A stretch of DNA of 64,000 nucleotides from Gammaproteobacteria bacterium (GTDB lineage: Bacteria; Pseudomonadota; Gammaproteobacteria; GCA-001735895): positions 64,401 through 128,400 of the forward strand of contig JALSKD010000177.1 in assembly GCA_026989015.1 (NCBI GenBank), in the 5' to 3' direction. The translations under genes and the position numbers were made by a program. Each line of letters opens with the position of its first letter. The first letter of the stretch is position 1. Below, one piece after another: positions 3,894 to 60,538 of the stretch. The notes under the pieces were generated by a model that saw only the letters and a list, made by a program, of their open reading frames with translations, made no database searches and was not told the origin of the DNA.

Positions 3894-5237
<1,344 letters not shown>

Positions 5238-46976: not shown

Positions 46977-48089
46977 TCAGTCGATGGCCTTGCCCTGGGC
47001 TTCCGCCGGGAAGGCCGACTCATAGCCCCAGATATCGGTGTCGTAGCCCTGGGCGCGCAGCATCTCGCCACGGGCCGAGATGTAACGCTGGAAGCTGGGC
47101 TGGGTGTCATAGCCCTGCTCCAGCACATAGGCCAGGGAAGACTGGAAGTGGAAGGTCTTGAGGAACCCTTCGATGCGGTGGACCTCCTTGCCCGTATCAT
47201 CGAAGAACACCACCGACGGCGTGTAGGCGATACCCAGCTCGCGGGCATAGTCCCGGGCCGTCATGCGGCGGCCATCGACGGTGGTCACGGGTTCTTCGGC
47301 GTAGACATTCAGTTGCACACTGCGCATCTGCTTCGCCAGCGCGCGGGTCGGCGCATCGCTCAGCACGCGCTGATGCATGACCGCACAATCGTCACAGCCG
47401 GGCGCTTCGAAATAGACGGCCAGATAGCGGCCGTCTCCGCGAATCAGTGATTTGAGATCCCGTGTGTCGAGGAAGAAATCCTCGCCGATCAGGCTTCCGC
47501 TGCGCGGCGCTTCACTGTCGAGCATGTAGTTGGCGAAGGTGGTTTCCTTTTCCTTGCCCTCTCCGGCGAAGCGCAATGCCTTGCGCAGCTTTGCCGGCGG
47601 GTAGTAGCCATTGAGCCGCAGCACCACCCGGCCCTGCTCGTCGAGGAACAGCAGCGTGGGCGTGTATTGCACCTTCAGCGCTTCGGCAAAACTCTTCTCG
47701 GTGTAATCCCGGCCCCCAATGCTGACGATCTCGCGATCGCCCCACATGTTGAGGGCAATACCGTCGAAACGGCTTTGTACATAGTCACGGATCTTCGGAT
47801 CCTGGAAATTTTCCTCCACCAGCTTGGCGCAGTAGGGGCAACCGTTCTGGTAGAAATACAGCAATACCCGGCGTCCATTGTCGCGCGCCTCGGCCACATC
47901 CTCCTCGAAATCGAGGAAGCTCTCCTTGAACCATTCGGGAATCTCCGATTCACGGGCGCCAAGGTAGCGCCCTTCGGAAGTCTGCTGCCCCATCACGGAC
48001 GGCGGCATCAGCCCGAGCAGCAACAGGAGCAGTGCGGTCAATGTGGCGGCAGGGGAAAACGATCGGCTGGCCAGATAGCGTGTTCTCAT
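46977..48089 (-). CDS. Periplasmic double thioredoxin-fold protein (CPYC and CDDC)
   Basis: Signal peptide and two thioredoxin-like domains. ATG at 48089, with a GAGGA Shine-Dalgarno. Confidence 0.7.
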   Translation of the reverse strand: MRTRYLASRSFSPAATLTALLLLLLGLMPPSVMGQQTSEGRYLGARESEIPEWFKESFLDFEEDVAEARDNGRRVLLYFYQNGCPYCAKLVEENFQDPKIRDYVQSRFDGIALNMWGDREIVSIGGRDYTEKSFAEALKVQYTPTLLFLDEQGRVVLRLNGYYPPAKLRKALRFAGEGKEKETTFANYMLDSEAPRSGSLIGEDFFLDTRDLKSLIRGDGRYLAVYFEAPGCDDCAVMHQRVLSDAPTRALAKQMRSVQLNVYAEEPVTTVDGRRMTARDYARELGIAYTPSVVFFDDTGKEVHRIEGFLKTFHFQSSLAYVLEQGYDTQPSFQRYISARGEMLRAQGYDTDIWGYESAFPAEAQGKAID

Positions 48090-48271
48090 GGTGGTCATCC
48101 TCGGTGGCTGCTTGTTTGGACGCCTGCAGTGTCCCGGCAGTTTCATAGGCAGGATCTATGGACATCATCACTACAAACGATTTGGGAAATACCCTGCGGC
48201 CCCCATATTCTACCCGCAAGCTGAACAAAGCAACGATTCCCCCAACACTTTAATCAACGAGGTAAGACACA

Positions 48272-48919
48272 ATGGAAAACGAAACTCCGATCACCCGCAT
48301 GCCGCGGATCAACGAACCCGCACCGGCCTTCGAAGCCAAGACCACTCATGGCATCCGCAGGCTCGAGGACTACAAGGGCAAATGGCTGGTGCTGTTCTCC
48401 CATCCGGCCGATTTCACGCCGGTCTGCACCACCGAGTTCATTGCCTTTGCCAAGCGTGCCGAGGAGTTCGGCAAGCTCAATGCCGAATTGCTGGGACTGT
48501 CCATCGACAGCACCTACAGCCATCTCGCCTGGGCACGCAACATCAAGGAGAAATTCGGTCAGGATATCCCCTTCCCGATCATCGCCGATCTGGACATGAA
48601 GGTGGCCCAGGCCTACGGCATGATCCACCCCGGCGCTGCCGACACCTCCGCCGTGCGGGCGACCTTCATCATCGATCCTGAGGGCATGCTGCGTGCCATG
48701 GTCTACTACCCGATGACCAACGGCCGTTCCATCGATGAATTCCTGCGCCTGCTGGCCGCCTTGCAGACCTCGGACGAGCACGGCGTCGCCACTCCCGAAG
48801 GCTGGCAGCCCGGCGACAAGGTCATCGTTCCTCCGCCACAGGACATCGACAGCGCCGAAGCCCGCATGAACGAAGGCTATGAGTGCGTCGACTGGTACTT
48901 CTGCAAGAAGAACCTGTAA
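48272..48919 (+). CDS. Peroxiredoxin (Prx6/1-Cys type)
   Basis: FSHPADFTPVCTTEF peroxidatic Cys motif. 215 aa. Confidence 0.9.
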   Translation: MENETPITRMPRINEPAPAFEAKTTHGIRRLEDYKGKWLVLFSHPADFTPVCTTEFIAFAKRAEEFGKLNAELLGLSIDSTYSHLAWARNIKEKFGQDIPFPIIADLDMKVAQAYGMIHPGAADTSAVRATFIIDPEGMLRAMVYYPMTNGRSIDEFLRLLAALQTSDEHGVATPEGWQPGDKVIVPPPQDIDSAEARMNEGYECVDWYFCKKNL

Positions 48920-48963
48920 ACCCGATCAGTCCTCCCTATCCGACATCATGGCAGATGTCCTTC

Positions 48964-48988
48964 GGCCCGCCCCGCGGGCCGTTTTTTT
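48964..48988 (+). terminator. Rho-independent terminator after the peroxiredoxin gene
   Basis: GGCCCGC-ccc-GCGGGCC stem followed by GT7. Confidence 0.7.
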
Positions 48989-49250
48989 GCACAGGGAAGT
49001 GCTTATCCTGCGAGCGCAGGGACGCGCAGGAGCAGGGTTTGCACAGGGAGGTGCTTATGCCGCGAAGGCCAGGGAAGGCCGAGAGCGGCGCTTGCACAGG
49101 GGTGAGCCACGACCGTCTTGCCAGTGGCAAGACGCAGCGTAGGCGAACGCCCGGACAGGGTGAGTCATGACCGTTCTGCCAGTGGCAGAACGCAGCATAG
49201 ACGAACGCCCGGACAGGAAGTCCGGGCTGGATCGACAGACCAGGGAAGGT
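48989..49250 (+). repeat. Array of about 5 degenerate tandem units (period 53-61 bp), each with short GC stems whose loops are AGGGAA, AGGGAG or AGGAA
   Basis: Hairpins: GCAC-AGGGAA-GTGC at 48989-49002; CCTGCG...AGGGA...CGCAGG at 49007-49030; GCAC-AGGGAG-GTGC at 49041-49054; GGCC-AGGGAA-GGCC at 49067-49080; GCCCGGAC-AGGAA-GTCCGGGC at 49207-49227; ACC-AGGGAA-GGT at 49239-49250. Also two 9-bp hairpins with AGU loops, at 49114-49134 and 49172-49192. Confidence 0.7.
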
Positions 49251-49484
49251 TACCGACTCCGCAACCCACTGACGCCACCGCTACCGGAACAGCCCCACCA
49301 GCAAGGCCGAACCAACGCATCGTGGAACAGGCATCTAGCCACTGAAGGCGGACGCGGGTTTCGCGCCTGTTGACGGCAGCGCCCCGGTAGCCGGCGACGG
49401 TGCGGGACGCGAGTTCCTTTCTTTGCGGGTCCAAAGAAAGGAACCAAAGAAAAGACCCCCAGCCGCCCCGGCCTGCGGCTGCCC
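49106..49484 (+). repeat. Copy A of a 379-bp direct repeat
   Basis: About 97% identical to 49604-49982 (offset 498 bp). Contains two AGU-loop hairpins, GGA-loop hairpins, and a 13-bp hairpin GTTCCTTTCTTTG-cgggtc-CAAAGAAAGGAAC. Confidence 0.8.
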
Positions 49485-49603
49485 GGCCGTCAACCGCCCC
49501 GCACCGGCACGCCGCGATGCGCTCCCGGCGCAGCGCGGCTCACGCGGCGTCCTGCCGCGTGACCGGCACGGAACGGCCGCCGACCGGCGGGGCAGATGGG
49601 TTC

Positions 49604-49982
49604 GCCACGACCGTCTTGCCGGTGGCAAGACGCAGAGTGGGCGAACGCCGGGTCAGGGTGAGTCATGACCGTTCTGCCAGTGGCAGAACGCAGCATAGAC
49701 GAACGCCCGGACAGGAAGTCCGGGCTGGATCGACACACCAGGGAAGGTTACCGACTCCGCAACCCACTGACACCACCGCTACCGGAACAGCCCCACCAGC
49801 AAGGCCGAACCAACGCATCGCGGAACAGGCATCTAGCCACTGTAGGCGGACGCGGGTTTCGCGCCCGTTGACGACGGCGCCCCGGTAGCCGGCGACGGTG
49901 CGGGACGCGAGTTCCTTTCTTTGCGGGTCCAAAGAAAAGAACCAAAGAAAAGACCCCCAGCCGCCCCGGCCTGCGGCTGCCC
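49604..49982 (+). repeat. Copy B of the 379-bp direct repeat
   Basis: See copy A. The 119-bp spacer between copies and the flanks are unique. Confidence 0.8.
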
Positions 49983-49999
49983 CGTAGCGGCAAAGCCGC

Positions 50000-50863
50000 T
50001 CATGCAAACAGCGTGCGTGCCAGTTCGCGCAGGCGCTCGCCCTGGTGCTCCAGTTCCTGCTGCAACGCCGTACAGGCATCGATCTCGAGACCGATCAGCG
50101 CTCTGCGGGGGTCGGCCTCGGCGCAGTTGACCCGCGCTCGGTGCATGCCGACCTGCCGAATCGCATAGCCGACGATCCACTCCATGGGGCGGCGCTGCGC
50201 TTCCCGGTATTCGCCGGTGAGCGCCATCGCCGCTTCCAGATCCTCGGGCAGTTTCCATTTCAGCGCCAGCAGTCCACCGGCATCGGCCTGATCGAAGCCG
50301 AGCCGCTCACGCAAAGCCTGGTGCAGGCTCAGCCGATCATCCGCTTCTTTCTGCCGCTGCACGGCTTCCGCGAATTCGTCGGGAAGGCGGTCGGCAATCC
50401 ACAACACGCCCAGATTGTGCAACAGTCCGCCGGCCCGGGCCGCCGCCGGTTCCAAGCGTTCGGACAGCGGGCTGGCGGCGCAGATCCTGGCCGAGGCTTC
50501 GGCGCAGAGCAAGGCGTCGGTCCAGTAGCGCTCCGCGTCAAAGGCGGGGCAGCGGCTGGGATCGAAGGCCGCGGCCACGGCCAACGCCAGGCTGGTACTG
50601 CGCACCACCGACAGGCCCAGGCGGGCACAGGCCTGCTCTACCGAGAGGATGGTCTCCACCGGCGAGGACCAGGCCGAATTGGCCAGTGCGATGAGGCGGC
50701 CGGCGATGGTCGGGAATTGTTCGATGACAGCGGCGATCTCGCGGAAATCCAGCTGCTCGTTGCTCAGTGCCCGCAACAGCATCGGCGTGTTGGAGGGCAA
50801 AACCGGCAGGCGTCCGCTGCCCAGGCGGTCCAGCAGGGCGGGAGGTTCGATGTGGCGGCTCAT
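50000..50863 (-). CDS. HDOD-domain signalling protein
   Basis: HDOD motifs (LPVLPSNTPMLLRAL...HNLG). Last gene of the TBDR/DUF4154/hybrid-kinase operon. Confidence 0.8.
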   Translation of the reverse strand: MSRHIEPPALLDRLGSGRLPVLPSNTPMLLRALSNEQLDFREIAAVIEQFPTIAGRLIALANSAWSSPVETILSVEQACARLGLSVVRSTSLALAVAAAFDPSRCPAFDAERYWTDALLCAEASARICAASPLSERLEPAAARAGGLLHNLGVLWIADRLPDEFAEAVQRQKEADDRLSLHQALRERLGFDQADAGGLLALKWKLPEDLEAAMALTGEYREAQRRPMEWIVGYAIRQVGMHRARVNCAEADPRRALIGLEIDACTALQQELEHQGERLRELARTLFA

Positions 50864-50882
50864 GGTCGCACTCCTGTTGTTG

Positions 50883-53800
50883 TCATTGTCTGTCGTTCTC
50901 GGGAAGAAAATTCCCGCGGGCCAGTTCCGGTATCTGCTCCGGCGGCACCGGACGGCTGAAGTAATAGCCCTGGATCGTATCGCAGCCCAGTCCCTGCAGG
51001 ACCCGCAGCTGTTCGACCTCTTCCACGCCCTCGGCGACCACAGTGTGCCCGAGCGCATGGGCCACGCCCACGATGGTGCCCAGCAGCACGGCCGAATCGC
51101 GATCCTGCAGCATGTCGCGGATGAACAGGCGGTCGATCTTCAGGCAATCGACGGGCAGGTATTTCAGCGAGGCGAGGGAGCTGTATCCGGTGCCGAAGTC
51201 ATCGATGGCGAGTTTGATGCCGAGATCGCGGATGCGTTCGAAGTTGTCCGGGTTGTCGCCACTGGTCTGCACCACGCTTTCGGTGACTTCCAGTTCCAGA
51301 CGCTCGGCCGGGAACCCGGTCTGCTGCAACACCGTCTGCAGGCTTTCGACCATGTCCGGGCTTTCGAACTGCAGCGGAGAGATGTTGACCGCAATGGTGA
51401 ATCCGTCGATGCCTTCCTGCTGCCAGCGCATGCCCTGACGGCAGGCCCGGTACAGCACCTGTTCGCCCAGTTGGCCGATGACGCCGATACGCTCGGCGAT
51501 GCCGATGAATTCCGCCGGCGATATCAGGCCGCGTTGGGGGTGATTCCAGCGCACCAGCGCCTCGACGCCGCTCATGCGGCCGGTCTCCAGACTCACCTGC
51601 GGCTGATAGTGCAACTCGAGTTGGCCTTCGGCCAGTGCCTGACGCAATTCCTGCTCCATCTGCAGGCGCTTCTGCGCCTTGGCGGTCAACTCCGGCTGAT
51701 AGAAGGCATAACGGTGCTTGCCCTCTTCCTTGGCCGCGTACATGGCGCTGTCGGCCGCCTTCAGCAGACCCTGCGCATCCATGCCGTCCTCGGGGTAGTA
51801 GGCAATGCCGATACTGGCGCGCGGATGCATCTTCTGGCCGCCCAGTTCGACGGCTTCATTGAGCGTTTGCAGGGTACGCCGGGCCACATCGGCGGCGTCA
51901 TACTGGTCACCGACATTGTCGACCAGGATGCAGAATTCATCGCCGGACAGGCGGGCCACGAAATCGGTCTCGCGCAGGATCGACTGCAGGCGCGTGGCGA
52001 CGATCTTCAACAGTTCGTCACCCACATCATGGCCCAGGCTGTCATTGACATCCTTGAAGCCGTCCAGGTCCAGGTACAGCAGGGCGAAGCGCTCGTCACG
52101 CCGGTGCGCCGCACGGATCACGTCTTCAAGGTGCTTGTGGAAATAGGCACGGCTGGCCAGCCCGGTCAGCACATCGGTATAGGCGAGCTGGCGGATGCGC
52201 TGCTCCGAAGCGCGTTGTTCGGTGATGTCCTGCACCGTGCCCAACACCACGCCGCTGTCGTCCGGAGCCAGTGACAGCAGCTGGTGCACCACCCGTTCCC
52301 GGTTGCGCCCGACCCTGAGACGGTAATCGGCGGACTGAATCTCGCCGCCGCGCGCCACCTCGTGAATCTGGTTGCGGATGTATTCCTGATCCTCTGGATG
52401 AACCCTCGACAGAAAATCCTCCAGCCCGTGAATGCCCGGCGCTTCACAGCAGTCGATCATCTGTGCCAGGTGCTCCGAGGTTTCGAAGCGGTCGCTTTGG
52501 GTCTGCCAGCGCCAGTAGCCGAGGCGTGCCAGTTTCTGCACGCTGGCCAGATGCTGCTGGTTCTCGTGCAGTTCGCGGGTGGTCTGCGCCACGCGCAGCT
52601 GAAAACGCATGCGGTGCACCAGCAGTGCCGGCGAAATCGGCTTGACGATGAAGCTGGAGGCGCCGGATTCAAAGGCCCGGTCCACCGATTCGATGTCGTC
52701 CAGGCCGGTGACCATCATCACCGGCAAAATCGGCCAGCGCGCATCGCGGCGGATCGCGCGGCAGGTTTCGAAACCGTCCTTGCCCGGCATCAGGGCATCG
52801 AGGATCACCAGATCGGGGGTCGATTCCTCCATCCGTTGCAGCGCCCGGTCGCCGCTGTCCGCCTCGATCACCCGCATGCCCTGGCTTTCCAGCAGCTCAC
52901 GGATCATGCCGCGGAAGGCGTTGTCGTCATCGACCAGAAGGATCCGTGGCGCGGTGTCATCGGCCGCCGGGGAGACGGTGGCCCCGCCCTTGCGGTTGAC
53001 CGTGTCCGGCAGCCAGTCGCTGCGCAAGCGCTGCTGCAGATCCGGCCAGCCTTCGTGTAAAGCCTTCAGCAGTGCATCCAGCCCGTCGAGCTGGCCAAGA
53101 CGGGCCTGATGTTCCAGCTCCCGGCAGCGCTCGGAGAAGGCCTTGAGGCCCAGGTTGGCGGAAGCGGATTTGAGGCCGTGGGCCAGCTGCCTCAGGCCAT
53201 CGGCATCGGCATCGCTCAGTGCCTGTTCCATGCGGGCCAGTGTCTCGGGGGTCTCGTCGAGGAAATGCCCCAGCGCCTTGCCGAGTATGTCTCGACCGGT
53301 ATCTTCCGAAAGCTGCCTGAGATCCAGCAGCGTGCCTTCGTCGATATCGGACACCGCGTCCGCGACCTCCGCGCTCGGGCTTGCGGCTTCCTCATCCGTG
53401 AGCCAGTGGCGCAAGCGGTCCTCAAGGGCCTGGCGCGAAAAGGGCTTGCTCAGGTAATCGTCCATGCCGGCCTCGGCGCACTGTTCCTGGATGCCCTTTT
53501 GCACATCGGCGGTGAGGGCGATCACCGGAACCCGCGCACGCTTCGATGCCTGTTCATCGGCACGGATCTTCCGCGTGGCCTCGAATCCGTCCATGCGCGG
53601 CATGTGGCAATCCATCAGGATCAGGTCGTAATCGCCCTGTTGCGCCCGTTCGACGGCTTCGATACCGTCGATCGCGACATCCACCTCAACACCGATCTGC
53701 ATCAGCATGCCGATGGCGACTTCCTGGTTGACCGGGTTGTCCTCGGCCAGCAGCACCCGTCCACCGAGTGCCTCTACCGTGTCCCGCCGCGTAGCCGAAC

Positions 53801-60461: not shown

Positions 60462-60538
60462 TGGCGCGCTGGGGAGGATTCGAACCCCCGACCCCTTGGT
60501 TCGTAGCCAAGTACTCTATCCAACTGAGCTACCAGCGC
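60462..60538 (-). tRNA. tRNA-Arg (anticodon ACG)
   Basis: 77-nt cloverleaf folded by hand: acceptor stem GCGCUGG/CCAGCGC, D arm, anticodon loop CUACGAA, T arm GGGGG-UUCGAAU-CCUCC, discriminator G, and an encoded CCA. Confidence 0.9.

Follow-up and report, generated by a model that had tools for sequence, protein, structure and literature searches.

A gene-free spacer of an uncultured gammaproteobacterium is a mosaic of two families of structured repeats, GGA-loop twin hairpins and a predicted triple-helix pseudoknot

Does the gene-free interval of about 1 kb between a 1-Cys peroxiredoxin (prx) gene and an HDOD-domain gene of an uncultured gammaproteobacterium encode a small RNA (sRNA) that titrates CsrA/RsmA? 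The interval (positions 48964-49982) lies in a stretch of 64,000 nucleotides of contig JALSKD010000177.1 (assembly GCA_026989015.1), hereafter the window, and an initial annotation made from the letters of the DNA had interpreted its GGA-loop hairpins as a candidate sRNA locus of the CsrB/CsrC/RsmX/RsmY/RsmZ type. We found that the spacer is a mosaic of amplified structured repeats from two families and not a discrete CsrB/Rsm-type gene. Family A is a 52-nt module of twin GGA-loop hairpins on the plus strand, and family B carries a pseudoknot core on the minus strand. Comparative analyses indicate selection on both families for a folded structure that is specific to one strand.

Repeat anatomy of the spacer

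The interval contains a 52-bp tandem repeat (2.2 copies at 48987-49101) and a 498-bp-period direct repeat in 1.8 tandem copies (49094-49484 versus 49592-49982), inside the unit of which lies a 58-bp tandem repeat of 2 copies. The 498-bp-unit repeat makes up about 85% of the interval, and its conserved structure is on the minus strand. The repeats and the hairpins that they carry are as follows.

48987..49038 (+): module A unit 1, consisting of hairpin 1, TTAT and hairpin 2
48989-49002 (+): unit 1 hairpin 1, GCAC-AGGGAA-GTGC
49007-49011 with 49032-49036 (+): unit 1 hairpin 2 outer stem, CCTGC/GCAGG, with purine-rich internal loops
49014-49027 (+): unit 1 hairpin 2 inner stem, GCGC-AGGGAC-GCGC
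49039..49090 (+): module A unit 2, sharing 92% identity with the only unit of the orthologous locus L004
49041-49054 (+): unit 2 hairpin 1, GCAC-AGGGAG-GTGC
49059-49089 (+): unit 2 hairpin 2, GCCGC...GGCC-AGGGAA-GGCC...GCGGC, with GGCC-AGGGAA-GGCC at 49067-49080
49091..49104 (+): module A unit 3, truncated (CTTGCACAGGGGTGAG), interrupted by the start of the 498-bp repeat
49094..49484 (no strand assigned): copy A of the 498-bp-period repeat, 95.7% identical to copy B over 391 nt
49592..49982 (no strand assigned): copy B of the 498-bp-period repeat, ending 17 nt before the HDOD stop codon
49100..49217 (+): 58-bp tandem duplication with hairpins CGTCTTGCC-AGT-GGCAAGACG and CGTTCTGCC-AGT-GGCAGAACG; again at 49598-49715
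49207..49252 (+): second type of twin GGA hairpin, GCCCGGAC-AGGAA-GTCCGGGC and ACC-AGGGAA-GGT; again at 49705-49750
49460..49481 (-): G+C-rich hairpin CAGCCGC-AGGCCGGG-GCGGCUG just 5' of the pseudoknot; again at 49958-49979
49485..49603 (-): spacer between the copies, a three-way junction with two GGA-loop hairpins, 5' of pseudoknot copy A

The plus-strand GGA-loop hairpins that had been listed for the interval do exist, those with stems of at least 4 bp being recovered by our hairpin scan. Seven distinct ones lie in 1.08 kb, compared with 114 in the 64 kb, making the interval approximately four-fold denser. The scan placed GCCCGGAC-AGGAA-GTCCGGGC at 49207-49227 and again at 49705-49725, while ACC-AGGGAA-GGT (at 49241 and 49739), with a 3-bp stem below the required 4 bp, went unlisted and was read directly from the sequence. 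The hairpins are not all on the plus strand, as had been stated: the minus strand holds two good ones, UCACGCGGC-AGGAC-GCCGCGUGA at 49540-49562 and UGCGC-CGGGA-GCGCA at 49518-49532. A distance of 53-61 bp between hairpins, also reported previously, holds only where it equals the repeat period, to which it is due; elsewhere the spacings are 26, 29 and about 140 nt. Because they derive from repeats with periods of 52, 58 and 498 bp, the hairpins are not independent events.

Read on the minus strand from the HDOD stop codon, the interval presents a small hairpin, the G+C hairpin at 49979-49958 and pseudoknot copy B (49960-49907), next the antisense of the plus-strand GGA hairpins and of the 58-bp repeats, and last the three-way junction (49603-49485), the G+C hairpin at 49481-49460 and pseudoknot copy A (49462-49409). 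The base of the 49485-49603 spacer is homologous to positions 7281-7330 of the orthologous locus L002. The predicted folding energy of 49335-49610 is -165.6 kcal/mol for the minus strand versus -150 kcal/mol for the plus strand.

Family A, a twin-hairpin module at terminator T-runs

Family A was sampled by scanning one genome per species for the exact 20-mer TTGCACARGGANGTGCTNAT, which matched at least 118 genomic stretches. Among the structured matches listed, the taxa are mostly gammaproteobacterial, including Sedimenticola, a Solemya symbiont, Thiolapillus, Marinobacterium, Thalassotalea, Shewanella, Colwelliaceae, Algicola and others, and the 20-mer was also detected in Riflebacteria and Bacillaceae. 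The module was not found in the plasmid collection. The unit of 52-53 nt comprises hairpin 1 (GCAC-ARGGAY-GTGC), TTAT and hairpin 2, the latter with a 5-bp outer stem, purine-rich internal loops, an inner stem of 4-5 bp and a terminal loop.

Both the outer and the inner stem of hairpin 2 co-vary (GTCTC/GAGAC, ACCC/GGGT, CCTCCC/GGGAGG, GCCG/CGGC and others), while its loop, which the search pattern leaves free, retains GGA in 72 of the 74 distinct sequences, mostly as AUGGAU or AUGGAC. The retention of GGA in an unconstrained hairpin with co-varying stems indicates that the GGA loops are selected and did not arise by chance. In 65 of the 74 sequences folding favours the GGA strand over its complement (by a mean of 2.4 kcal/mol, p = 2e-11), and this strand has 21 G.U pairs versus 13; both observations are consistent with an RNA read on the GGA strand and containing G.A-type internal loops.

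Hairpin 1 (GCACARGGAUGUGC) fits the CsrA consensus RUACARGGAUGU, derived by systematic evolution of ligands by exponential enrichment (SELEX) and quoted in PMC4347634, at approximately 11 of 12 positions. Each unit presents two A(N)GGA(Y) loops about 26 nt apart, which would be enough for one CsrA/RsmA dimer. The near-invariant GGA, the fit to the SELEX consensus and the presence of two sites per unit make the twin hairpins plausible candidate ligands of CsrA/RsmA.

Units occur in tandem arrays of one to seven. At least four extra T residues stand directly upstream of 44 of the 67 arrays, and a stable hairpin also precedes the T-run in 40 of the 67, so family A typically starts exactly at the T-run of the upstream gene's terminator, where the arrays may grow or shrink. 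The same arrangement is seen in the window, where the T-run of the prx terminator merges directly into the first TTGCAC of module A.

48963..48988 (+): intrinsic terminator of prx, with its stem at 48963-48981 (8 G-C pairs) and a T-run

Only 1 of 99 arrays has a GacA box (up to two mismatches, within 300 nt upstream), downstream terminators are not enriched 3' of the arrays (7/59 versus 20/177 controls), and no head of the GTAG type known from repetitive extragenic palindromic (REP) sequences was seen in the unit. Family A was counted on at least 10 contigs of the metagenome-assembled genome (MAG) CSMAG_2548, 4 each of Bse_11 and SRP128015_co1_131 and 2-3 of others; these counts are lower bounds, as they include only listed matches to the exact 20-mer. 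In the 64 kb examined of the window's own genome there is one family A locus. The related genomes thus show a dispersed extragenic palindrome family, the highest count per MAG being 10 or more contigs, and this is an outcome that the initial annotation had named as contrary to an sRNA locus.

Two other repeats incorporate the 20-mer or the A unit. In Riflebacteria MAGs and one unclassified MAG (SRP192927_co6_749) we identified at least 5-8 copies each of a longer repeat, in which the same 20-mer TTGCACARGGANGTGCTTAT is followed by GCAGAGCUGCGC-AGGAUAGAG-CAGCUCUGC and a conserved tail of about 100 nt (loci L014, L016, L023, L035, L037, L039, L042, L044, L045, L047, L056, L058, L061, L065, L071, L072, L076, L081, L105, L115, L120, L121, L125, L126 and L128). 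It appears to be a high-copy family in its own right, organised about this GGA hairpin. In CSMAG_2548, at least 10 contigs carry a composite repeat in which A units and another conserved segment (about 70 nt, CTGACCTCCCATTGCCYCAGGG...CCCCTAACCTGCAA) alternate (loci L021, L027, L030, L043, L055, L088, L097 and L129).

Family B, a pseudoknot core on the opposite strand

The triple-helix core of family B is the most interesting item of the interval and lay outside the original observation. The window and L002 have in common a hairpin, GTTCCTTTCTTTG-CGGGTC-CAAAGAAAGGAAC (49413-49444), and the CAAAGAAAAGACCCCC that follows it, with compensatory changes in the stem. A scan of metagenomes with the corresponding motif matched at least 120 stretches on AT-rich and GC-rich contigs from soil, rhizosphere, freshwater, marine and gut samples, the matches often lying 50-150 bp from contig ends. 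Caballeronia and Burkholderia chromids contain the motif as well, with up to 19 occurrences per replicon, as do Ralstonia, Variovorax and the fusobacterium Ilyobacter; it is always unannotated and intergenic. No recurrent neighbouring protein family, transposases included, was found beside family B.

In the window and in loci L130-L251 the core is laid out as a 5' segment x, UUUCUUUGG, GUNACUUUCUUUG, a loop with the complement x' and CAAAGAAAGUNAC, forming a 13-bp stem the loop of which pairs with x. The window has two copies, with the following parts given for copy A.

49409..49462 (-): pseudoknot core copy A (covariance model R1, 69 bits, E = 5.5e-14)
49458-49454 (-): x, GGGUC, pairing with GACCC of the loop GACCCG
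49453-49444 (-): loop 1 (L1), UUUUCUUUGG
49444-49432 (-): 5' strand of stem 2 (S2a), GUUCCUUUCUUUG, followed by the loop GACCCG
49425-49413 (-): 3' strand of stem 2 (S2b), CAAAGAAAGGAAC
49907..49960 (-): pseudoknot core copy B (covariance model R1, 64.6 bits), roughly 40 nt past the HDOD stop codon

Pairing of the stem reaches 99.1% across the family. At one position of the stem, 46 of 112 sequences have a U.G or G.U pair when read on the strand opposite the search pattern, which would be A.C on the pattern strand, and just one sequence is unpaired at this position on the inferred strand. The sole stem substitution in the window's copy B is of the same kind, U.G on the minus strand and C.A on the plus strand. 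This wobble bias points to the window's minus strand as the functional single strand. Pairing of the loop with the 5' segment was evaluated by a register-free test, which replaced a column-based count on alignment A3 (46.8% paired) that was upset by loop-length gaps; the helix has a mean of 4.06 bp versus 2.87 +/- 0.08 in 200 shuffles. The family B core is probably an H-type pseudoknot.

The parallel course of loop 1 (UUUCUUU) and the stem 2 purine strand (AAAGAAA) is the geometry of a U.A-U/C+.G-C major-groove triple helix. The covariance model R1 recovered diverged cores that the exact pattern had missed, in which loop 1 changes with the stem, always as its mirror (AAGAGAAA with UUCUCUUU, AAAGAAAA with UUUCUUUU, AAAGAAAAA with UUUCUUUUU, AAAAGAAA with UUUUCUUU, AAGAAAA with UUCUUUU, AAGAAA with UUCUUU, and AAAAAA with UUUUUU). 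The mirror relation is preserved in at least seven variant types, from more than 20 cores, L206 being the one exception and L001 adding a partial example, and a direct-repeat relation never fits the asymmetric variants. The co-variation of L1 and stem implies a predicted triple helix in which the U-rich linker would occupy the major groove of the 13-bp stem, forming U.A-U and C+.G-C triples.

Diverged cores are found 350-500 nt from the primary cores in inverted orientation, with a second inverted core in at least 17 family B loci. A typical B element therefore has two arms, measures about 0.5 kb and directs its triplex strands outward. The window departs from this in having two direct copies and lacking an inverted arm. 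In the 220 nt 5' of the pseudoknot, the triplex strand of family B carries 103 GGA-loop versus 30 UCC-loop hairpins. The downstream neighbour on that strand is convergent in 67 of 100 cases, at a median distance of 132 nt, which places B elements at gene 3' ends, and the window's G+C hairpin with the U-rich L1 scores as terminator-like. Judging by this position and by analogy with triple-helix stability elements, the triplex would most simply be a compact fold that either stabilises the RNA against nucleases or is associated with its termination. Among 82 gammaproteobacterial family A loci only the window and L002 also hold B, so the two families are independent modules that are stacked here.

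We found no match to the family B core in Rfam 15, for the window or for related loci, and nothing relevant in the searchable full-text literature either for the core sequence or for bacterial intergenic triple-helix pseudoknots. Given its breadth and three-way covariation, the core may be a new class. We tentatively propose, at somewhat less than even probability, that the core at 49409-49462 and 49907-49960 (minus strand) represents an undescribed cross-phylum class of structured RNA (or single-stranded DNA), namely an H-type pseudoknot of about 50 nt with a U.A-U/C+.G-C major-groove triple helix of at least seven layers, borne by multi-copy two-armed intergenic elements of Proteobacteria, Fusobacteria and AT-rich soil and marine taxa, usually with CsrA-type GGA hairpins 5' on the same strand. 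As such it would be a bacterial analogue, carried by mobile elements, of the triple-helix stability elements of eukaryotes and viruses, and possibly a CsrA-binding RNA family with a triplex-protected 3' end.

Several other readings were considered and rejected. The triple repeat of CAAAGAAAG could suggest transposon ends or transposase sites, but no neighbouring protein recurs and the third repeat mirrors the others instead of copying them directly. A single-strand element of the IS200/IS605 type was discarded as the two cores of an element lie on opposite strands, and integron attC sites, CRISPR repeats, iterons and parS were dropped on sequence, since their defining motifs or periodicity are lacking.

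Some family B loci have additional features. The B element of L215 is flanked by inverted copies of GTCATTCCCGCGAAGGCGGGAATCCAG (4160-4195 and 4810-4880), another short palindromic repeat, which we take to resemble the ATTCCC-N8-GGGAAT repeats of Neisseria and Betaproteobacteria. A clean terminator (ACCCCUGCGGGGCCUUUUCG) lies in the middle of this two-armed element, at L215:4412-4432, at the end of the arm that reads as UCC loops, and transcription entering from the UCC-arm side would stop mid-element. AT-rich B elements (L145:6880-6906, L135 and L138) have a partial extra stem arm (GTTCATTTCTTTTG-CTTGCCC) adjoining the primary core and share a tail of more than 150 nt with an AACUCGC...GCUCAAACAG internal-loop motif; these may be a distinct structured subfamily. 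In the window, sub-threshold matches to the Rfam M23 RNA on the minus strand (28.9 bits at 49416-49485 and 24.9 bits at 49914-49982; gathering 41.2) cover the G+C hairpin and the pseudoknot stem, and probably reflect mere hairpin-level resemblance.

Gene-like signals and coding content

The interval lacks several attributes of a CsrB/CsrC/RsmX/Y/Z-type sRNA gene: it has no match to a Csr/Rsm model of Rfam, no GacA box, promoter or downstream terminator, and the orthologous spacer is not conserved. At gathering score, Rfam identified only tRNAs and one Bacillaceae-1 in the window and 28 related loci; at E <= 10, four sub-regions gave noise-level matches only (RsmW, M23, SorX and microRNAs). The search with Csr/Rsm models that the initial annotation had recommended returned only RsmW, at 15.4 bits and E = 1.1-7.9. 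Scans bore out the earlier remark that the GacA box and sigma-70 promoter are absent: no GacA/UvrY box (TGTAAG-N6-CTTACA) was found at up to three mismatches in 48000-50100 and no sigma-70-like promoter in the interval. No plus-strand terminator was found 3' of the hairpins. The upstream terminator had been described as the only classical one in the interval, a description that missed terminator-like sites on the minus strand at 49979-49958 and 49481-49460.

The interval opens directly after the prx terminator, as had been described (48963-48981 plus T-run), and, also in agreement, holds no credible coding sequence. None of its open reading frames (ORFs) has a Pfam match, their third-position G+C fraction (GC3) is 0.57-0.72 versus 0.77-0.82 in neighbouring genes, and they also lack the second-position fraction (GC2) of 0.4-0.5 typical of these genes. 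We therefore rejected coding potential and consider the interval non-coding.

Orthologous spacers

Judged by homologues of the HDOD protein, the window belongs to an uncultured gammaproteobacterial lineage close to Sedimenticola and to the sulfur-oxidising symbionts of tubeworms and clams, and orthologous loci were reached via these homologues. The spacer 3' of HDOD is hypervariable, measuring 104, 256, 691 and 1080 bp in L009, L004, L002 and the window, with 0, 1, 1 and 2.2 module A units, respectively. L009 (HDOD 71% amino acid identity) has a terminator only, L004 (75%) has its twin-hairpin unit directly after the terminator, and L002 (76%) has, in addition to its A unit, a B core inverted relative to the flanking genes. 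The inverted segment of L002 is homologous to 49342-49474 and 49551-49600 of the window. As repeats break assemblies, L001 (the closest relative, 91%) and a number of short-read contigs stop within the elements.

The prx gene is absent in three relatives (L007, L008 and L011), where HDOD is directly followed by a thioredoxin-like gene. L011 retains a remnant of the prx terminator region (CCCGACATCAAGGCCGATGTCTTCAGCCCGCCCCCGCGGGCTGTTTTTT). The pattern suggests loss of prx rather than gain.

Comparison with known RNAs and repeats

As in CsrB and CsrC and in RsmX, RsmY and RsmZ, the interval displays repeated hairpins with A(N)GGA loops (seven distinct on the plus strand and at least two strong ones on the minus strand), including pairs of sites reachable by one CsrA dimer. 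It differs from these sRNAs in having no match to their covariance models (clan CL00106), no GacA/UvrY box, no promoter or terminator of its own and no conserved orthologous locus, and in that family A is multi-locus, variable in copy number and situated 3' of other genes' terminators.

Family A also resembles orphan motifs. Like TwoAYGGAY (RF01731), it has two stem-loops, mostly AUGGAU or AUGGAC in hairpin 2, purine-rich (G.A-type) internal loops, no gene association and an occurrence in Gammaproteobacteria. RF01731, however, matches neither the window module nor the clean array L116 at E <= 10, and the window loops are AGGGAA, AGGGAG and AGGGAC, not AYGGAY. To our knowledge, the terminator-abutting position and the 52-nt tandem arrays are not part of the description of TwoAYGGAY. 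That motif is listed for the human gut, Gammaproteobacteria and Clostridiales (Weinberg et al., PMC2864571), and Gardner and Eldai proposed it and the reverse complement of Bacillaceae-1 as CsrA binders, with the strand uncertain (PMC4333381). Bacillaceae-1 (RF01690) likewise combines a short hairpin with a longer one containing an internal loop, and the Bacillaceae member L022, which shares the 20-mer TTGCACAAGGACGTGCTGAT, is a bona fide Bacillaceae-1 match (54.3 bits). It differs in that Rfam models the opposite (RUCCU-loop) strand, that the window has no match and that the taxon is another. A B-type element from soil, L131, gives sub-threshold matches to RsmW (27 bits) on the triplex strand and to Bacillaceae-1 (24.9 bits; gathering 35) on the other strand. 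By its predicted structure, family A is a gammaproteobacterial, terminator-abutting, array-forming variant of the TwoAYGGAY/Bacillaceae-1-type twin GGA hairpins that are already suspected of CsrA binding.

RsmW of P. aeruginosa and RsmU of Xanthomonas are also GGA-hairpin RNAs, RsmW being the best, non-significant Rfam similarity of the interval. Both are RsmA binders derived from mRNAs or 3' untranslated regions (3' UTRs), located on a neighbouring gene's transcript and needing no GacA box (PMC4950607, PMC13622538, PMC7694677). The scores of 15-27 bits remain far below the 52-bit gathering threshold, and RsmW and RsmU are single conserved loci, not dispersed repeats.

REP sequences and bacterial interspersed mosaic elements (BIMEs), REP doublets forming hairpins (REPINs) and miniature inverted-repeat transposable elements (MITEs) resemble the families in being short palindromic units in gene-free spacers at gene 3' ends, in tandem or inverted clusters, with many loci per genome, copy numbers that vary among relatives and assemblies that break within them. 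With respect to the two inverted arms expected of a MITE, at least 17 family B loci have a second, inverted core at a distance of 350-500 nt, and the window has two direct copies. The families differ from such repeats in the absence of a GTAG-type head and of a nearby REP-associated tyrosine transposase (RAYT) or other transposase (neighbours were clustered for family B), in their sequence conservation across phyla and in their strand-specific features (G.U pairs, G.A loops, triplex). A search of the searchable full-text literature for 'CsrA' with 'repetitive extragenic palindromic' returned nothing relevant.

Elements for nuclear expression (ENEs) illustrate that RNAs of mobile elements can use triplexes for stability. 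The topology of family B matches that of the S-adenosylmethionine riboswitch SAM-V: loop 1 is U-rich and parallels the stem 2 purine strand, and in the SAM-V structure it forms U.A-U (and C+.G-C) triples (PMC6061858). Family B differs from riboswitches and ENEs in having no sequence or covariance-model similarity to any Rfam riboswitch, in not being upstream of particular genes, in having no poly(A) partner and in its multi-copy, two-armed organization.

Weighing the explanations

The explanation we prefer, at about even odds, is the proposal that both families are RNA modules on 3' extensions of the flanking mRNAs. The plus-strand modules would be carried by read-through of the prx terminator and the minus-strand modules on the HDOD 3' UTR. 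The GGA hairpins could then bind CsrA/RsmA and bring about distributed, UTR-borne titration or recruitment, like RsmW and RsmU and unlike CsrB.

Several observations weigh against this proposal. Lying 3' of a strong terminator and having none of its own, module A could enter plus-strand RNA only by read-through. The G.U excess is modest for module A alone (21 versus 13), and no csrA or fliW gene was found in the 64 kb of the window or among the loci retrieved. GGA hairpins and B cores have no fixed orientation to each other: in L002 and L151, UCC loops stand in place of the GGA loops of the window, whose plus-strand GGA hairpins are antisense to its B cores. Such variability fits selfish, orientation-free repeats, and dispersal, contig breaks and a two-armed inverted architecture are hallmarks of mobile DNA.

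The main rival accordingly holds that both families are selfish repeats that act as DNA only, of the REP/BIME or MITE type, with hairpins recognised, in cruciform or single-stranded DNA, by a transposase or recombinase and with GGA loops and triplex serving mobility. We consider this explanation possible but unlikely. It accounts for the dispersed, multi-copy elements at which assemblies break, for the opposite orientations of the B core in the same spacer of relatives and for the two-armed inverted repeats of about 0.5 kb; the A arrays abut terminator T-runs as if these were a preferred insertion target, and G.T wobbles and T.A-T triples are possible in single-stranded DNA too. It leaves unexplained why no transposase or other recurrent gene accompanies family B, and why the 20-mer is conserved among Gammaproteobacteria, Riflebacteria and Bacillaceae and the triplex core among Proteobacteria, Fusobacteria and AT-rich taxa, a conservation across phyla that argues for a universal partner and not for an enzyme of one lineage. 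Strand specificity is seen in the purine-rich internal loops and in the bias of GGA over UCC (103 versus 30), and the mirror relation between L1 and stem speaks against repeated protein-binding sites.

The families could also be RNA 3'-end elements that act independently of CsrA, either as exonuclease barriers or termination enhancers where genes converge, or with GGA loops (or, on the other strand, UCC loops) that mimic or sequester Shine-Dalgarno or anti-Shine-Dalgarno sequences. We judge this improbable. Both families do lie at gene 3' ends, A beginning at terminator T-runs and the B cores at a median of 132 nt from the end of the convergent neighbour, the G+C hairpin and U-rich L1 resemble a terminator right after HDOD, and Rfam annotates the related Bacillaceae-1 motif on the UCC strand; yet such elements would explain neither a near-invariant GGA in A(N)GGA(Y) with freely varying stems nor the match of hairpin 1 to the CsrA SELEX consensus.

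Least probable is a dedicated plus-strand sponge sRNA of the CsrB/RsmX/Y/Z type that titrates CsrA/RsmA through many GGA hairpins, as seven distinct hairpins in 1 kb, loops that fit the CsrA consensus (PMC4347634) and a weak best Rfam similarity to RsmW (15.4 bits) are set against Csr/Rsm covariance models that do not reach E = 0.1, the lack of a GacA box, promoter-like site and closing plus-strand terminator, putative sites half of which are duplicates from recent tandem repeats, orthologous spacers without the locus or with different content, and a most conserved structure that lies, for 85% of the interval, on the opposite strand.

If CsrA is bound by the GGA modules, as the proposal of RNA modules on mRNA 3' extensions would have it, part of the titrating capacity of the cell would reside in dispersed, copy-number-variable repeats and CsrA titration would not be limited to a few GacA-controlled sRNA genes. 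This would change the search for Csr/Rsm networks in uncultured Gammaproteobacteria and provide the TwoAYGGAY and Bacillaceae-1-type motifs, which are orphans, with a function that can be tested. A triplex conserved in bacteria outside riboswitches would form a class new in both structure and function, and the triplex core would be a handy marker for a large family of unannotated, assembly-breaking intergenic elements.

Flanking genes and other features of the window

The prx gene, identified by Pfam, occupies 48272-48919 (plus strand) and the HDOD-domain gene 50000-50866 (minus strand), convergent to it. The longest HDOD ORF is 352 amino acids and overlaps (50867-51058) the 3' end of the upstream gene, which encodes a CHASE8-HAMP-HisKA-REC-Hpt-PAS-GGDEF-EAL protein. 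Since homologues are 287 amino acids long, we place the true start of HDOD at the internal Met at 50866. The sole Rfam match at gathering score in the whole window is a tRNA gene at 60465-60538 (minus strand).

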